Source of the DNA: OCS155 cluster bacterium AG-422-J23
Lineage (GTDB): Bacteria > Actinomycetota > Acidimicrobiia > Actinomarinales > Actinomarinaceae
Reading direction: 5' to 3'
DNA: 64,000 bases
NCBI GenBank assembly: GCA_003213625.1
Contig: QCMT01000001.1
Location: forward strand, 369,568 to 433,567
The notes below the pieces were generated by a model. It saw only the letters and a list, made by a program, of their open reading frames with translations. It was not told the origin of the DNA and searched no databases. The first letter of the stretch is position 1, and every line of letters starts with the position of its first letter. Both the position numbers and the translations under genes were made by a program. Shown here piece by piece: positions 8,033-38,765 of the stretch.

Positions 8033-9043
8033 TTGGTTAACGTATCTTTAGTTGGTTTCGGAAGAGTTGGAAGAGACATCTTTAGACAAACTCTTGAAGA
8101 AGACAATATAAATATCGTATCTGTATCTGATACTGCAGATAAAGATAATTTAATTTACTTACTTAAATACGATTCAATTTATGGAAAATTGCGTCATGAA
8201 GTAAATATCTCTGATGACACAATAACGGTTAATGGAAAAGAAACTATCTTTAATTCTTGGAAAAATGCAGATGAATCTGATTGGACGAGTCTAAATACAG
8301 ACATTGTCATATTAGCTACTGGTAAACCTCAAAATTTAGATGAAGCTCAAAGTCATATCTCTAAAGGTGCAAAGAAAGTATTTATAGCTTCAACTCCAGT
8401 TGATTTTTCAAATATTCCATTGCTCGTGTCTGGATGTAACGATGAATCTATCAGTTTGGAATCAGACATTATTTCTTTTGGCTCAAATACTGCAAATGCG
8501 GTTGGTCCCATTCTTAAAGTTATTGAGTCTGAGTATGGAATTAATGAAGTATTTTTAACAACGGTTCATGGATATTCAAATTCGAATCGTCTTGCTGATG
8601 TTGCGGGTGCTGGATTTAGAAAAAATCGAGCAGCTGGAGAAAATATCATTCCATCAGTTACTAATTCATCAAAAGTTATTGAGAGTGCATTACCAATGCT
8701 TAAAGATAAAATAGCTTCGTTTTCAATGACAGTACCCGTTCCAGATGGAAGTACGATCGATTTGACTTTGAATTTAAAAACTAAAACTTCTAAGGATGAG
8801 GTAAATAGTTACCTTGAGAAAGTAACCTCAGATAATTCGTTGAAAAATATTATTGGATTTACATATGATCCAATAGTTTCTTCAGATGTGGTTGGAAATT
8901 CTCTTTCTGGGTTAATTGATGGATTATCAACTATGTGTATTGATGAAGATAAATTAAAACTAATCATTTGGTTTGATAATGGATGGGGTTATGCCTCAAG
9001 AATCATTGAAGCCGTGAAATCATCGGAGGTACAATTTGAATAA
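8033..9043 (+). CDS. Glyceraldehyde-3-phosphate dehydrogenase-family paralogue lacking the catalytic cysteine (probable non-canonical enzyme or pseudoenzyme)
   Basis: NAD-binding GFGRVGR, TTVHGY and WFDNGWGY motifs are kept. The active-site S-C-T-T-N-C is replaced by SNTANAVGP (Cys149 to Asn, Cys153 to Ala). Confidence 0.75.
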   Translation: MVNVSLVGFGRVGRDIFRQTLEEDNINIVSVSDTADKDNLIYLLKYDSIYGKLRHEVNISDDTITVNGKETIFNSWKNADESDWTSLNTDIVILATGKPQNLDEAQSHISKGAKKVFIASTPVDFSNIPLLVSGCNDESISLESDIISFGSNTANAVGPILKVIESEYGINEVFLTTVHGYSNSNRLADVAGAGFRKNRAAGENIIPSVTNSSKVIESALPMLKDKIASFSMTVPVPDGSTIDLTLNLKTKTSKDEVNSYLEKVTSDNSLKNIIGFTYDPIVSSDVVGNSLSGLIDGLSTMCIDEDKLKLIIWFDNGWGYASRIIEAVKSSEVQFE

Positions 9044-10040
9044 TATTGGAATAAATGGCTTTGGAAGAATAGGTAGGTCTATTTTAAGAATAATTGTTGA
9101 ATCAAATTCAGATTTAAATGTAATTGCAATTAATGACCTAGGTGATAAGGAAACATTATCATATTTATTTAAACATGATTCAATAATGGGAATTTTAAAC
9201 ATGAATGTTGAATTAGAAGATGATTCCTTAATTGTTGGAGACAGAAAAATTAAATTAATATCCCACAGTGATCCTGGAGAGATTCCTTGGAGTGATTTAG
9301 GTGTTGATTTGGTCGTAGAATCAACTGGCTTTTTTAGAGATAAAGAGTCGTTAGATAAACATATCTCCTCAGGTGCAAAAAAAGTTGTCCTAACAGTACC
9401 CCCTAAAGATGAAATAGATGCAACAATAGTTTTAGGTGTAAACGACAATTCCTTAAATCCAGACGATAAGTTGATTTCTAATGCATCTTGTACGACTAAT
9501 TGTTTAGCTCCAATAGCAAAGGTATTAAATGACAACTTTAAAATTAAATCAGGATTGATGACAACCGTTCATGCTTATACAAATGATCAAGCGTTAGCAG
9601 AGACAACTCACAGTGATTTTAGAAGAGGAAGGAATGCAACACAAAATATAATTCCAACATCTACTGGTGCTGCAAAGGCTGTTGGTATGGTTCTTCCTGA
9701 ATTAAATGGAAAACTTGATGGAATGGCAATGAGAGTTCCTGTCCCGAATGGTAGTGTTGTAGACCTTGTTGTTGAGGTAGAGAAAGAAGTAACTATTGAT
9801 GACATAAATAATGCAGTAAAAAAAGCCTCTGAAAATGAACTTAAAGGAATTTTAGATTACTCAGATATTCCACTTGTTTCTACAGATATTCTCAAGAATC
9901 CTCATTCAAGTATTTATGATGCTTCATCAACACAAATACTAAATAACAACCATATCAAAGTAGTTTGCTGGTATGACAACGAATGGGGTTATTCAAATCG
10001 TGTTGTAGATTTACTTGAAAAATTATCAAAAGATGAATGA
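9036..10040 (+). CDS. gap: Glyceraldehyde-3-phosphate dehydrogenase, type I
   Basis: Canonical motifs INGFGRIGR, SNASCTTNCLAP, TTVHAYT, WYDNEWGYS. Confidence 0.9.
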   Translation: MNNIGINGFGRIGRSILRIIVESNSDLNVIAINDLGDKETLSYLFKHDSIMGILNMNVELEDDSLIVGDRKIKLISHSDPGEIPWSDLGVDLVVESTGFFRDKESLDKHISSGAKKVVLTVPPKDEIDATIVLGVNDNSLNPDDKLISNASCTTNCLAPIAKVLNDNFKIKSGLMTTVHAYTNDQALAETTHSDFRRGRNATQNIIPTSTGAAKAVGMVLPELNGKLDGMAMRVPVPNGSVVDLVVEVEKEVTIDDINNAVKKASENELKGILDYSDIPLVSTDILKNPHSSIYDASSTQILNNNHIKVVCWYDNEWGYSNRVVDLLEKLSKDE

Positions 10041-34672: not shown

Positions 34673-34888
34673 TAAATTACTTTAACTGATATGGGATATA
34701 ACAAAAATAACATCTATATTTAACCACCAAATATGTGGTTATACCAGCTGGCAGAATTATATAAAATAGCAACAATGAAGTACAAGATAAACGACAGAAC
34801 TCCAAGTATTTGTAAAATTTTTAAAAACTTATCCACAGACAAAGACTACTTGACAATAAAATAAATATTAAATAGTTAAGATTTAAAT

Positions 34889-35860
34889 ATGATTAAAAAT
34901 TTGTCACCATCAAGAGCATCTCAGTTTAAAACCTGCCCTAAACAATTTAAGTTTGCGAATATTGACAAAATTAAAGAGCCAACTAATGAAGTACAAGCCA
35001 AAGGAACAACTGTACACGAAGCTCTAGAAAAAATATTTGATTTACCTAAAGAAGAAAGAAATTTAGAAAATCTTCATAACTTATTCAGGAAAGTATGGAC
35101 AGATGTACGAGCAAGTGATGAACATGTTCATCTTTTTAATGATCAATCCGAAGAAAGGGAATGGGGATTGGATGGGTTAAAGCTTCTTTCAAATTACTTA
35201 ACTCTTGAAAATCCTGCGTTATTTGATCCTTTAGAGAGAGAAAGATGGGTCAGAGGCTCTATAGAGGATTTAAATTTACGTGGAATATTAGACCGGATGG
35301 ATAGAAATGATAAAGGTGAATTAATTATTGTAGATTACAAATCAGGGAAAGCTCCAAATGCTAAATACAAAGAACCAAGATTTTTTGCATTAAAGTTGTA
35401 TGCATTATTGATCAAAAACGAAATTGGTGAAACACCAGCTGAATTAAAATTAATTTATTTACAAAACTCAACCATTCATACAATGAAAGTAGATGAAGAA
35501 ATGCTTAGGAATGCGGAAAAAGAGATTTTAGAGATATGGAATAATATTAAAGTTGCATTTGAAAGTAACAATTTTCCAACAATCAAAAATACATTATGTG
35601 ATTGGTGTTACTACAAGCCAATTTGCCCAGAGTTTAATAAAAATGCACCAAGTACAGTTGAGCTGGAAAATTGTAATGAAAAAATAGATGAAATTAATGA
35701 AACATTAGAAGCTATAAATTTAGTTGGAGGTTTAGATAATCTTCCAGATAACAGTCCATTAAAAAATACAAATCTAGATGAAATCAATAAAAATTTGGAA
35801 GAATTGAATATTACAAAAAATAAAATAGTTAAAGATATAGAAGAATTTTTACGGAAATAA
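34889..35860 (+). CDS. PD-(D/E)XK nuclease, RecB/Cas4-like with an Fe-S Cys cluster and an acidic low-complexity C-terminal tail
   Basis: Motifs VHEALE, ILDRMD, IVDYKSGK (D...D/ExK). Four Cys (one in FKTCPKQ, three in CDWCYYKPICP), as in Cas4/AddB-type nucleases. Confidence 0.65.
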   Translation: MIKNLSPSRASQFKTCPKQFKFANIDKIKEPTNEVQAKGTTVHEALEKIFDLPKEERNLENLHNLFRKVWTDVRASDEHVHLFNDQSEEREWGLDGLKLLSNYLTLENPALFDPLERERWVRGSIEDLNLRGILDRMDRNDKGELIIVDYKSGKAPNAKYKEPRFFALKLYALLIKNEIGETPAELKLIYLQNSTIHTMKVDEEMLRNAEKEILEIWNNIKVAFESNNFPTIKNTLCDWCYYKPICPEFNKNAPSTVELENCNEKIDEINETLEAINLVGGLDNLPDNSPLKNTNLDEINKNLEELNITKNKIVKDIEEFLRK

Positions 35861-37111
35861 TCCTCTAGTTAACTTTGCAGCAGCCACTTTTTTAATTCCT
35901 TTAATTAAAGCAGCAGTTCTTAAGTCAACTTTATTCTTTTCAGAAATAATCCATATCTCTTCAAAGGCTGAGGTCAGAACATCGATCAATCGATCGTGTA
36001 ATTCTTTTTCTTTCCATAAATAGTTCTGTGTATTTTGGACCCATTCAAAATAACTGGCAGTAACACCACCTGCATTTGCAAGAATATCAGGTATTAGTAA
36101 AACTCCATTATCCCTTAATATTTTATCTGCATTAAGGGTTGTTGGTGAGTTTGCTCCCTCAACAATAATTTTTGCTTTGATATTGTCTGCGTTATTTGAT
36201 TTGATAACACCTCCAACAGCAGCAGGAATTAAAATATCACATTCAATTTCCAATATTTCATCGTCAAAATTATCTGCACCATCAAAATCTTTTACAGATT
36301 TGTTTTTAGCTATGTACTTAAAGAGTTCAGGAATATTAATTCCATTCTTATTATAAATAGCACCACCTAAATCATTTACAGCAATTACTTTTGCTCCTCT
36401 TTCATACGAGTCAAGAGCCGCATACCGCCCAACATTTCCAAATCCCTGGATAACAACTGTTGAGTTTTCATATTTTAAATTTAATTTATCTAAAGCAGCG
36501 TTTGCAATAGCTACAACTCCTCTACCGGTTGCTTCTCTTCTTGTGATCGAGCCTCCAAGTGAAGCTGGTTTACCAGTTACAATTCCTGGTTGTGGTGAGC
36601 CAACGAAATTACTGTAGGTATCCATGATCCATGCCATAGTTTGTTCATCTGTTCCAAGATCTGGACCTGGGATGTCCTTGTCAACACCAATTACTGGCAA
36701 CAACTCAGCTGTGTATCTTCTTGTAACCCTTTGTTTCTCTTGTTTTGAAAGAGGGGTTGGATCAATTGCAACACCACCCTTTGCTCCACCATAGGGTAAT
36801 CCAACAATTGCGGACTTCCATGACATCAAAATTGCTAATGCTGTAACTTCGCCTAAATTTACATTCGAAGCATATCTGATACCTCCTTTAGTTGGTCCCA
36901 TTGATAAGACGTGTTGTACTCGGTATCCAATTACAGTTTCAACCTCATCATACTCATCTCTTCTGAATGGAAATGTCACCGTTAGTGCTCTTTGAGGGAG
37001 TTTTAATCTTTCTCTAATATTCGAATCAAGATTAATGAATTCAGTTACTTCATCATATTGCTTAATGACCTCTTTATACATGTTTGACTCAAAAAGGTCT
37101 GAATTACTCAT
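35849..37111 (-). CDS. gdhA: Glutamate dehydrogenase (Glu/Leu/Phe/Val dehydrogenase family)
   Basis: Catalytic motif LSMGPTKGGIRY and NAD(P)-binding GFGNVG. Confidence 0.9.
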   Translation of the reverse strand: MSNSDLFESNMYKEVIKQYDEVTEFINLDSNIRERLKLPQRALTVTFPFRRDEYDEVETVIGYRVQHVLSMGPTKGGIRYASNVNLGEVTALAILMSWKSAIVGLPYGGAKGGVAIDPTPLSKQEKQRVTRRYTAELLPVIGVDKDIPGPDLGTDEQTMAWIMDTYSNFVGSPQPGIVTGKPASLGGSITRREATGRGVVAIANAALDKLNLKYENSTVVIQGFGNVGRYAALDSYERGAKVIAVNDLGGAIYNKNGINIPELFKYIAKNKSVKDFDGADNFDDEILEIECDILIPAAVGGVIKSNNADNIKAKIIVEGANSPTTLNADKILRDNGVLLIPDILANAGGVTASYFEWVQNTQNYLWKEKELHDRLIDVLTSAFEEIWIISEKNKVDLRTAALIKGIKKVAAAKLTRGLFP

Positions 37112-37325
37112 TACATGGCTATCTTATTCTAAAAAATTACTTGTTGTATGTTTTTTTATATTTTTTGTCATATCCGTTTTCTATTATTTCTTTTATGAAA
37201 AATAACAAAATTGAAGATATTCTTAAATCATGCGGGTTGGAAGCAGTGATTGTTTGCTACCAACATAGTGACAGCTGTAGATGTCATGAAGACTATAGAA
37301 AAGCCGCTTAGTTTAGGAGTACATA

Positions 37326-37885
37326 TGAGTAATAATTTAGATGAAATATTATCTTTAACAAAAGAGATAACATATCAGGATAGTGATGACTTTGATATTA
37401 CTGTTACTGAATATGGCGAGGAACTTTCCAAAACAAAAGATATTGAGTTCCTTTGGATAGCTAGAAATACTAGCTCAACTGTAAAAAAAGCAAGTACAAA
37501 TATTAAGTCTTTTAATGATCAAAATATTGCAAAAAATGTCGAAGAAAACGGACCTGTAAGGCTTGGTGATGAAGTATTTGTATTTAATAAATCTTATAGT
37601 TGGAAAGTTCAAGATTTAAGAAAATTTATTGAGTGGATTATTGAAAAATCAGATAACAATGAAGAGCTAGTTGAATCTCTACTTGCAATACTTGGACAAA
37701 CCTTTGTTCCTAAACTAAAGGGTCTTGATGCTTTTTCAAATTCTAAGAATATTAATCCCGAAATGATTCGTGATACTTTTTTATATAAAGAATGGAAAGA
37801 AAAAGCTGACTTAAAAAGTATAAATACAAACAACAGTACAGCCCCAAAGTGGGCAAAAGAGCTAGGTCATAAAGAAAGGAAATAA
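37326..37885 (+). CDS. Hypothetical protein (partner of the Rad52-like gene, no recognisable domain)
   Basis: ORF with RBS AGGAG 7 nt upstream of ATG 37326. Ends exactly at the start codon of the downstream gene (coupled). Confidence 0.4.
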
Positions 37886-38313
37886 TGAATCAATTATATG
37901 AACTATCAAGACAATTTCCAGATGAGTGGATTAAGCCCGCTCCAAAAGGTAAATTTGGAAACTATATTCCTCATTCTGTCATTACTCAAAGACTTTTAGA
38001 GGTATGTGGGCCTTTTAATTGGGAAGTTGTTCAATTAATTAGACAAGATAATAGTGGAAAAGTAGTTGGTTGCTTTGGCAAACTAACAACACAAATTGAT
38101 GGCAAATCAGTAACCATAACATCAATTGGAGATGTTGAACACGATCAAGGAAGTGACGGCATGAATGCTAAGCATGCTGAATCAGATGCATTCAAAAGAT
38201 GTGCTATGAAAGTTGGTCTTGGATTACATCTTTGGGCTGGTGAAGAATATTATTTAGATAAAAAACTTAGTGAAGCTGAAGGAAAGAAAAATATAAAGTT
38301 ACAATCTGCTTAA
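37885..38313 (+). CDS. Rad52/Rad22-family single-strand annealing protein (Sak-like), minimal 142-aa form
   Basis: Alignable to the Rad52 N-terminal domain: [20 protein letters not shown] ~ [40 protein letters not shown] ~ [20 protein letters not shown]. Confidence 0.6.
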   Translation: [142 protein letters not shown]

Positions 38314-38765
38314 CTTTGAATTTTTCCATCTCTTGATTCAATAAACATTGTTAAAGGACCATCGTTAATAAGTGAAACTTCCATTAAAGCTCCAAAGATA
38401 CCTTGTTTAAGGGTTAATTTGTCAGAAAATATCTCAGCAACATCATCAATCATTTTTTTTGCAATCTCAGGATCTTGAGAATTTATAAATGATGGTCTAT
38501 TTCCTTTTTGAATATTTCCACTTAATGTAAATTGGCTTACTAAAAGTATTTCTCCATTAGCATCAATTATTGATTTATTCATTTTTCCTTGTTCGTCAGG
38601 AAATATTCTCAAATTAATAATCTTGTTTGTTAGAGTTTCAATATCTTCTGGAGTATCACCTTTTTCAATACACCATAAAAGGAGATAGCCACTGCTAATT
38701 TCTGAAATTAAAGAGTTATCAACTTTCACTGATGCTGATTTAACTCTTTGCAAAACAACTTTCAT
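38310..38765 (-). CDS. dtd: D-aminoacyl-tRNA deacylase
   Basis: MKVVLQRVKSASV ... SQFTL..N..KG.RPSF motif. Confidence 0.9.
   Translation of the reverse strand: MKVVLQRVKSASVKVDNSLISEISSGYLLLWCIEKGDTPEDIETLTNKIINLRIFPDEQGKMNKSIIDANGEILLVSQFTLSGNIQKGNRPSFINSQDPEIAKKMIDDVAEIFSDKLTLKQGIFGALMEVSLINDGPLTMFIESRDGKIQS

Follow-up and report, generated by a model that had tools for sequence, protein, structure and literature searches.

We analysed a 64-kb stretch of DNA (64,000 nucleotides of contig QCMT01000001.1, referred to below as the window) from the low-GC (~32%) chromosome of a Candidatus Actinomarina bacterium, and in particular the genes that lie between those of a Glu/Leu/Phe/Val dehydrogenase (gdh) and a D-Tyr-tRNA deacylase (dtd). 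A preliminary description, made from the sequence alone, had placed there two open reading frames (ORFs), one for a Rad52-like protein and one for a partner without recognisable domain, and had regarded the pair as an islet; both ORFs are present as described. It is practically certain that the Rad52-like gene encodes a phage-derived annealase of the Rad52 fold, which has become a fixed part of a cellular core genome, evolves under constraint there and belongs to a three-gene operon with a conserved promoter. Our full reading, to which we assign a probability of about 0.6, is that this operon, encoding a Cys/His peptide, an acidic accessory protein (the partner) and a minimal Rad52-fold annealase, is old, phage-derived, vertically inherited and fixed in the core genome of the Actinomarinales. 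Its likely function, as predicted from fold and sequence, would be the RecA-independent annealing of complementary single-stranded DNA (ssDNA) in repair or recombination.

The 142-amino-acid (aa) product is a Rad52-fold, Rad52-family annealing protein, a new member of a known family. Its match to the Pfam profile PF04098 (Rad52_Rad22) scores 23.4 bits (E 6e-5), above the curated cut-off of 20.3, and spans residues 7-129, that is, positions 9-147 of the 153 in the profile; a precomputed match to the same profile is also carried by many of its homologues. Among PHROG families, it matches phrog_3290 ('single strand annealing protein', E 5e-13) and phrog_1097 (E 8e-10). The AlphaFold model, built from 18 homologues, has a predicted local distance difference test score (pLDDT) of 88 and a predicted template modelling score (pTM) of 0.80. 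With strands at residues 45-53, 60-71 and 74-83 and a helix at 91-109, it shows the three-stranded sheet on a long helix, and the N-terminal strands, of the Rad52 annealing domain. When the model was compared with the PDB using Foldseek, the 17 best matches were all the N-terminal domain of human RAD52 or yeast Mgm101 (E 7e-6 to 3e-3, probability 1.0, template modelling (TM) score 0.5-0.6).

Rad52 homology, first proposed on the strength of two matching motifs, is thus borne out by a profile match above the cut-off and by RAD52 and Mgm101 as the best structural matches. The motifs themselves fared less well: when the family profile was aligned with human RAD52, the second motif alone aligned, and weakly so (E 0.02, probability 2%). 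In that weak alignment K104 and R105, which are invariant across 18 diverse annealase homologues, pair with the KR of the RAD52 motif, human K152/R153, which we take to be basic residues of the ssDNA groove. A search of the PDB by sequence with the family profile did not retrieve RAD52. The assignment is therefore based on the Pfam profile and the fold, the pairwise motif match not being significant alone.

To place the gene within its order, we made use of a scan with one genome per GTDB species. The annealase gene was found in 54 Actinomarina/Actinomarinales species representatives, at 77-100% identity; the next best matches outside the Actinomarinales were at most 52% identical. Both flanks could be followed in 53 of the 54, and the synteny counts rest on these 53. 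The order gdh-partner-rad52-dtd was kept in every one of them, and in 52 it lies within a collinear block of ten genes (amt-ino1-PDDEXK-gdh-partner-rad52-dtd-pnpox-hcdh-acad), namely those of an aminotransferase, inositol-1-phosphate synthase, a nuclease, gdh, the partner, the annealase, dtd, PNPOx, 3-hydroxyacyl-CoA dehydrogenase and acyl-CoA dehydrogenase. The same block was found on a 155-kb metagenome contig (73% identity), and the single-cell genome AG-919-G14 (L008) is almost identical to the window, with 99-100% protein identity over the ten genes. The lone exception is AH-321-L10 (L015), which differs only upstream of gdh: the aminotransferase and inositol-phosphate synthase genes are absent from the locus, a 26% match to the PD-(D/E)XK nuclease is on the other strand, and gdh-partner-rad52-dtd is intact. 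A preprint that reports 84 complete Actinomarina genomes (bioRxiv 10.64898/2026.04.03.716425) describes no universal gene adjacency in the group and a gene order that decays sharply between Actinomarina species; either the ten-gene block is exceptional or the measure used there understates synteny. A metagenome scan for empty sites, seeded with gdh, returned distant gdh genes only (46-58% identity), with the operon near none of them, and is uninformative for the Actinomarinales.

The ratio of non-synonymous to synonymous substitution rates (dN/dS) was 0.09 for the annealase gene, compared with 0.06 for gdh, 0.11 for PNPOx and 0.26 for dtd. For the partner it was 0.31-0.34, so that this gene is more relaxed than the annealase. 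The largest protein divergence of the annealase is 0.30, equal to that of gdh, acad and ino1, and its pairwise divergences are correlated with those of these three proteins (Spearman 0.50-0.84). The GC content of the region shows no anomaly relative to the rest, which means that its composition is native. We conclude, with near certainty, that the operon is a fixed, vertically inherited core part of the Actinomarinales chromosome. Given the invariant gene order, the native GC and a divergence that tracks that of housekeeping neighbours, the term islet, with its image of genes wedged between core genes, has to be given up. As to the possibility, also raised at the outset, of conserved core synteny with a known function, the synteny is indeed universal in the lineage; no known function goes with it.

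These results bear on two other explanations. One is that the operon is the remnant of a prophage cassette without cellular function, or else an anti-phage element acting as a decoy or through recombinase-based exclusion. The relatives of the annealase are phage genes, as such an origin would have it, and several defence systems are known to sense phage annealases (PMC11846896). However, both annealase and partner are under purifying selection (dN/dS 0.09 and 0.31), which does not support a decaying remnant, and the operon holds a fixed position in a conserved block of native composition in every genome seen. The defence function suggested earlier is not supported either, since none of the three operon proteins matches a known defence family in PADLOC-DB. 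Around the locus, the ORFs and contig annotations that were examined include neither an integrase nor any other phage gene, in agreement with the preliminary description, and the 64-kb window contains no tRNA gene. We therefore hold this explanation to be very improbable.

A second explanation would have the operon stand in for lost RecO/RecFOR or RecA-dependent steps in these ~1.1 Mb genomes, and be essential for recombination. The functional counterpart of Rad52 in bacteria is RecO. The annealase is under constraint as strong as that on housekeeping genes and occurs in all 54 species representatives, found by an annealase-seeded scan, while homologous recombination is reportedly unusually influential in the order (PMC7771536). 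On the other side, recA, recO, recR and recF are not mentioned in the genome papers on the group. Such a replacement seems to us rather improbable.

Where the operon came from was investigated by comparison with viral sequences. Homologues of the annealase, at 34-51% identity, were found on 53 IMG/VR viral contigs. The contigs that carry those of about 50% identity are of phage type and have genes for a tape-measure protein, integrase, endolysin and WhiB; contigs L004-L007, for instance, are phage-like and encode a tape-measure protein, an integrase and WhiB. A neighbour-joining tree was built from 101 distinct sequences, 39 of them from the Actinomarinales. These 39 annealases form a single clade (199 of 200 bootstraps), which is nested among sequences from viral contigs. 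This nesting argues for an old domestication. The pair itself is found outside the order: on 14 marine viral contigs of GC 0.32-0.34, a homologue of the partner (~40% identity) lies directly upstream of the annealase gene, while the other phage contigs with an annealase have a GC of 0.41-0.73. One partner cluster of this type is labelled 'uncultured Mediterranean phage uvMED' by its source. One pair-carrying contig, L125, has an exonuclease gene (phrog_284, 2e-53), then the partner, the annealase and a weakly SSB-like ORF, in that order. By tblastn (E<=1e-3) against 50,697 GenBank phage records, no homologue of the annealase was found, and a tblastn search of the same records with the partner and three of its remote homologues returned nothing.

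Of the possibilities offered in the preliminary description, a domesticated recombination module fits best, the pair being present in uncultured marine phage contigs as well. From these sequence comparisons we conclude that the partner-annealase pair is a recombination sub-module of phages, that it was acquired a single time, early in the order, and that the exonuclease was not retained. Some further observations were made on the relatives. The pair-carrying contigs (L111, L113, L125, L130 and related IMG/VR contigs) match Actinomarina in GC and could come from phages that infect Actinomarina or some other marine host of low GC. In L125 there are, in addition, genes for a RepB-type primase and a class-II glutamine amidotransferase-like protein. 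The bacterial contigs L062-L079 (soil Actinomycetes, Actinomycetota and one Pirellulaceae metagenome-assembled genome), of which L079 is part of a 328-kb contig, carry Rad52-like homologues at 41-52% identity and no partner; these may be prophage genes or further domestications.

Within the window, the partner stop codon TAA (37883-37885) shares one base with the ATG of the annealase gene, and across the 53 orthologous loci this junction varies from a 4-nt overlap to a 1-nt gap, in keeping with the translational coupling proposed earlier. The spacer between gdh and the partner is 213 nt long. By aligning such spacers from 14 diverged genomes, we found in it a further small ORF and a promoter element, both overlooked before. 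The small ORF ends 13 nt ahead of the partner ATG, so that the operon consists of three genes and not of two.

A 38-codon frame from a conserved ATG fits each of the 53 loci; a few have an extra in-frame ATG two codons upstream. The 36 distinct peptides share an invariant C-x2-H-x3-C-x-C-H pattern and an invariant C-terminal -AA. By codon position, 29, 20 and 37 of 38 sites are variable, the third position being the most variable, and dN/dS is about 0.40. No match to the peptide was found in Pfam or PADLOC. One might speculate that it is a zinc-binding subunit or regulator. Its last codons (37300-37311) merit a separate remark: all 36 distinct peptides end in Ala-Ala after a charged residue (…KAA, …EAA, …QAA, …DAA), an ending that resembles ssrA-type C-terminal degradation signals. 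By this analogy, the peptide might be meant to be short-lived.

The promoter element has the form TGTC-N12-TAnnnT (TTTGTCAyAc-N-TAnnnT), that is, a -26 element followed by a -10 hexamer. It was present in 53 of 53 loci, and over 32 distinct instances TGTC, A7, TA17-18 and T22 were invariant, the remaining spacer positions not being conserved. TGTC lies 12 nt from the -10 hexamer, a gap too short for a -35 box, and no -35 element stands at the canonical distance. Between the -10 hexamer and the ATG of the small ORF there are 7 nt in the window and 6-8 nt across loci; a leaderless mRNA is thus expected. This is the sole intergenic instance of TGTC-N12-TAnnnT in the window. The PafBC promoters of the actinobacterial DNA-damage response have the consensus tGTCgg(N10)tA(N3)T, likewise a -26 element and a -10 (PMC8635444; PMC6789036), and the element found here is identical to it in spacing and bipartite architecture. 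Control by DNA damage through a PafBC-type promoter is plausible by this analogy. Candidates for PafBC itself were sought among the ORFs of the window; those at 8033-10040 (~335 aa) proved to be GAPDH paralogues instead.

The partner starts at ATG 37325, which is preceded by AGGAG and at which its orthologues begin. Of the 186-211 aa given in the preliminary description, the shorter length therefore stands, while the 211-aa version with its TTG start is rejected because the stretch upstream codes for the small ORF in a different frame. Orthologues are present in all Actinomarinales loci. The protein has an isoelectric point (pI) of 5.1, and the whole family is acidic (median pI 5.2), the first 50 residues having a median net charge of -7. 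No match was found in Pfam, PHROG, NCBIfam, PADLOC or the PDB sequences, so that the partner is without recognisable domain, as stated before. In a profile search of 1.84 billion representatives, only 107 relatives were found, mostly of 170-210 aa; ten were checked for annotation and none has any. Searches of IMG/VR with single proteins of the family returned nothing. The AlphaFold model is of moderate quality (pLDDT 80.7, pTM 0.59), with a confident alpha/beta domain at residues 76-186 and low confidence over the first 50. Its best match among viral models is an uncharacterised protein (E 1.7e-4, TM 0.34), and it weakly matches a RecB-like exonuclease of an Arthrobacter phage (E 0.016, TM 0.39). 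An alignment of 40 family members showed no conserved catalytic residues. A nuclease was rejected, there being neither conserved acidic/Lys catalytic residues nor a profile match; the weak structural match to an exonuclease points neither way. The partner is not a domain of other genes found upstream of phage annealases either: hhalign comparisons with 19 such neighbours all gave a probability below 0.5%.

The remote homologues of the partner, on phage-type contigs, are informative through their neighbourhood. They adjoin Rad52-like genes in L134/L135, L087 and L140: P0284, 26% identical to the partner, is followed by a Rad52-like gene; in L087 the two genes overlap; in L140 the order is annealase, partner and a VRR_NUC nuclease. 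In L081 the homologue lies ~800 nt upstream of the Rad52-like gene. Two other annealase families are also met with, since P0301 is followed by a RecT-family gene (L137; PF03837, 41.8 bits) and P0305, after a 68-aa ORF, by an ERF-family gene (L138; PF04404, 34.1 bits). The occurrence of one partner family alongside three annealase families speaks for a general role in the pathway, not one tied to a particular fold. We propose, with low confidence, that the partner is a non-enzymatic co-factor, adaptor or regulator. On two unrelated high-GC phage-like contigs, the partner homologue is followed by a 353-359-aa protein of phrog_19042 (L133, 3162-4223; L142, 2967-4046), an unannotated family at the slot held elsewhere by the annealase; it may represent a recombinase family so far unrecognised.

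A different role for both proteins would be end protection, the annealase shielding 3' ssDNA ends after damage and the partner being a Gam/Gp157-like end binder or an inhibitor of nucleases. The model here is DdrA of Deinococcus, a chromosomal, damage-induced protein of the Rad52 family that binds and shields 3' ssDNA ends. The Actinomarina gene, too, is chromosomal and core, with a damage-type promoter. The partner occupies the slot of the Sipho_Gp157 or 'Mu Gam-like end protection' gene upstream of the annealase of L119, it is acidic, as are DNA-mimic inhibitors, and its model resembles, though weakly, a Gp157 model (E 0.047) and a 'host-nuclease inhibitor' (E 1.1). However, a profile comparison (hhalign) of the partner family with the Gp157 protein of L119 gave a probability of 0.2%, an earlier profile match having been circular (L119 was in the seed), and no Gam/Gp157 match in Pfam or PHROG was obtained for 40 members of the family; homology to Gp157 or Gam was accordingly rejected. 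In the annealase, for its part, the KR pair of the RAD52 groove is retained without variation, and its closest relatives are proteins of phage recombination modules. End protection is, in our opinion, unlikely.

Under the reading that we prefer, that of a domesticated annealing operon, the annealase would form oligomeric rings that bind ssDNA in a basic groove including K104/R105, and would pair complementary strands without RecA. Annealing could then serve the repair of double-strand breaks or gaps, or the integration of ssDNA at replication forks. As for the acidic partner, it would be a non-enzymatic adaptor or regulator of the annealase, serving three annealase families in phages, and the leaderless operon mRNA, if made from a PafBC-type promoter, would be inducible by DNA damage. 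A more ambitious proposal is that the partner represents a new, widespread class of co-factors for Rad52-like, RecT and ERF annealases (a single-strand binding protein (SSB)/replisome adaptor or an acidic regulator of the groove, for example), and that the pair, together with a zinc-binding micro-protein, was recruited by the Actinomarinales under PafBC control into a cellular RecA-independent pathway that partly replaces RecFOR. We regard this proposal as doubtful.

Several points weigh against our reading. As the annealase itself served as the seed of the genome scan, only carriers of the operon could surface. The partner model (pTM 0.59) has no confident fold match, the best PDB E-value being 0.96, and the role proposed for the partner is drawn solely from gene neighbourhood, charge and lack of catalytic residues. 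In the promoter element, the gg that follows TGTC in the (mycobacterial) consensus is not conserved, A/T/G and then C/T being found instead; nor does the bare pattern occur in the window more often than expected (4 found, 5.6 expected), and the promoter call is based on conservation and position, not on occurrence. Finally, there is no exonuclease within the operon, which leaves a gap in the classical two-component scheme of phages, unless the missing activity comes from a host nuclease such as the nearest one, a separate unit beyond gdh.

That nuclease matches Pfam PDDEXK_1 (E 6e-33) and phrog_69 ('exonuclease', E 1e-29), has C-terminal cysteines, and also matches Cas4/DruK-type PADLOC models. 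Its position is shared by nearly all Actinomarinales loci, and the TGTC promoter element is not found at its gene. Three phage contigs (L116, L132 and L102) have a member of this nuclease superfamily immediately upstream of their Rad52-like gene. A part for the Cas4-like nuclease as provider of resection is speculative.

The features of the locus are listed in Table 1. The flanking genes are, by Pfam, the gdh-type dehydrogenase and D-Tyr-tRNA deacylase that had been named before. The 3' end of the operon overlaps the convergent dtd by 4 nt, and no terminator was predicted at the operon.

Table 1. Features of the operon and its surroundings, in window positions
Feature	Coordinates	Strand	Basis or remark
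Cas4/AddB-like PD-(D/E)XK nuclease, stand-alone	34889..35860	+	PDDEXK_1, phrog_69
Glu/Leu/Phe/Val dehydrogenase (gdh)	35849-37111	-	Pfam
Conserved promoter element TGTCATATCCGTTTTCTATTAT	37166..37187	+	Kept in 53/53 orthologous loci
Small Cys/His ORF, 38 aa, MKNNKIEDILKSCGLEAVIVCYQHSDSCRCHEDYRKAA	37195..37311	+	First gene of operon
Partner, 186 aa, acidic, undescribed family	37325..37885	+	Second gene of operon
Rad52-fold annealing protein, 142 aa	37885..38313	+	PF04098, phrog_3290, AlphaFold model
D-Tyr-tRNA deacylase (dtd)	38310-38765	-	Pfam

Two other places in the window deserve mention. At 34720-34842 (-), between the genes of inositol-1-phosphate synthase and the PD-(D/E)XK nuclease, there is a conserved small hydrophobic ORF of 38-40 aa (VDKFLKILQILGVLSFILYFIVAILYNSASWYNHIFGG). 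Its conservation shows a codon-like periodicity in an alignment of 12 diverged genomes, and it probably encodes an unannotated membrane micro-protein. The tandem genes at 8033-9043 and 9036-10040 (+) overlap and each code for a paralogue of glyceraldehyde-3-phosphate dehydrogenase, GAPDH (E 2e-72 for the first and 2e-118 for the second against GAPDHs of the PDB), an unexpected redundancy for a streamlined genome.

Bacterial Rad52-type annealases have been treated as phage or prophage genes, and one survey equates bacterial and phage origins of annealases (PMC11783212); here, such a gene is a fixed and strongly constrained core gene of a whole order. The Actinomarinales are very abundant, genome-streamlined bacteria of the ocean, and the retention of the operon in a genome that discards nearly everything dispensable argues for a real cellular role. 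What is new is the order-wide domestication in a ~1.1 Mb genome, the undescribed family of putative co-factors, the conserved micro-protein and the damage-type promoter; the genome papers on the Actinomarina group do not mention the operon. It offers a testable handle on the strong homologous recombination inferred for Actinomarina from population genomics (PMC7771536). The partner family, tied as it is to three annealase families, is a candidate recombineering accessory for Actinobacteria, where annealase portability limits.

How does the operon compare with known systems? Within the Rad52/Sak/Erf grouping of annealases (Lopes et al. 2010, PMC2896510), the phage mini-Rad52 proteins (PF04098; phrog_3290, phrog_1097) have the same fold and family profile as the Actinomarina protein, and relatives of up to ~50% identity sit in replication/recombination modules of uncultured actinophage-like contigs. 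Unlike them, the Actinomarina gene belongs to a cellular core genome, is vertically inherited across the order and has no adjacent exonuclease. The RAD52 N-terminal domain and Mgm101 are the best structural matches, and the KR of the ssDNA groove is shared; identity is ~16-22%, however, and the Actinomarina protein consists of the 142-aa annealing core only, without the C-terminal RPA/RAD51-binding region of RAD52. Deinococcus DdrA is likewise a cellular, chromosomal protein of the Rad52 fold, and a place in the damage response is plausible for the annealase as well; the two differ in lineage, with an independent phage-derived origin for the Actinomarina gene, which is accompanied by a conserved partner and a small peptide gene. 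Compared with Sipho_Gp157 (PF05565) and Mu Gam-like proteins, the partner shares the place directly upstream of the annealase and a size of ~180 aa, but no detectable homology (hhalign 0.2%; no PF05565 or phrog_253 match among 40 members). In Lambda Red and RecET an exonuclease is combined with an annealase, and related phage contigs do have an exonuclease by the pair (phrog_284 in L125; PD-(D/E)XK in L116, L132 and L102), whereas the Actinomarina operon has none and its annealase-coupled gene bears no nuclease signature. With respect to PafBC (RecA-NDp) promoters (PMC8635444, PMC6789036), the element differs at the gg of positions 5-6 and shares both architecture and spacing.

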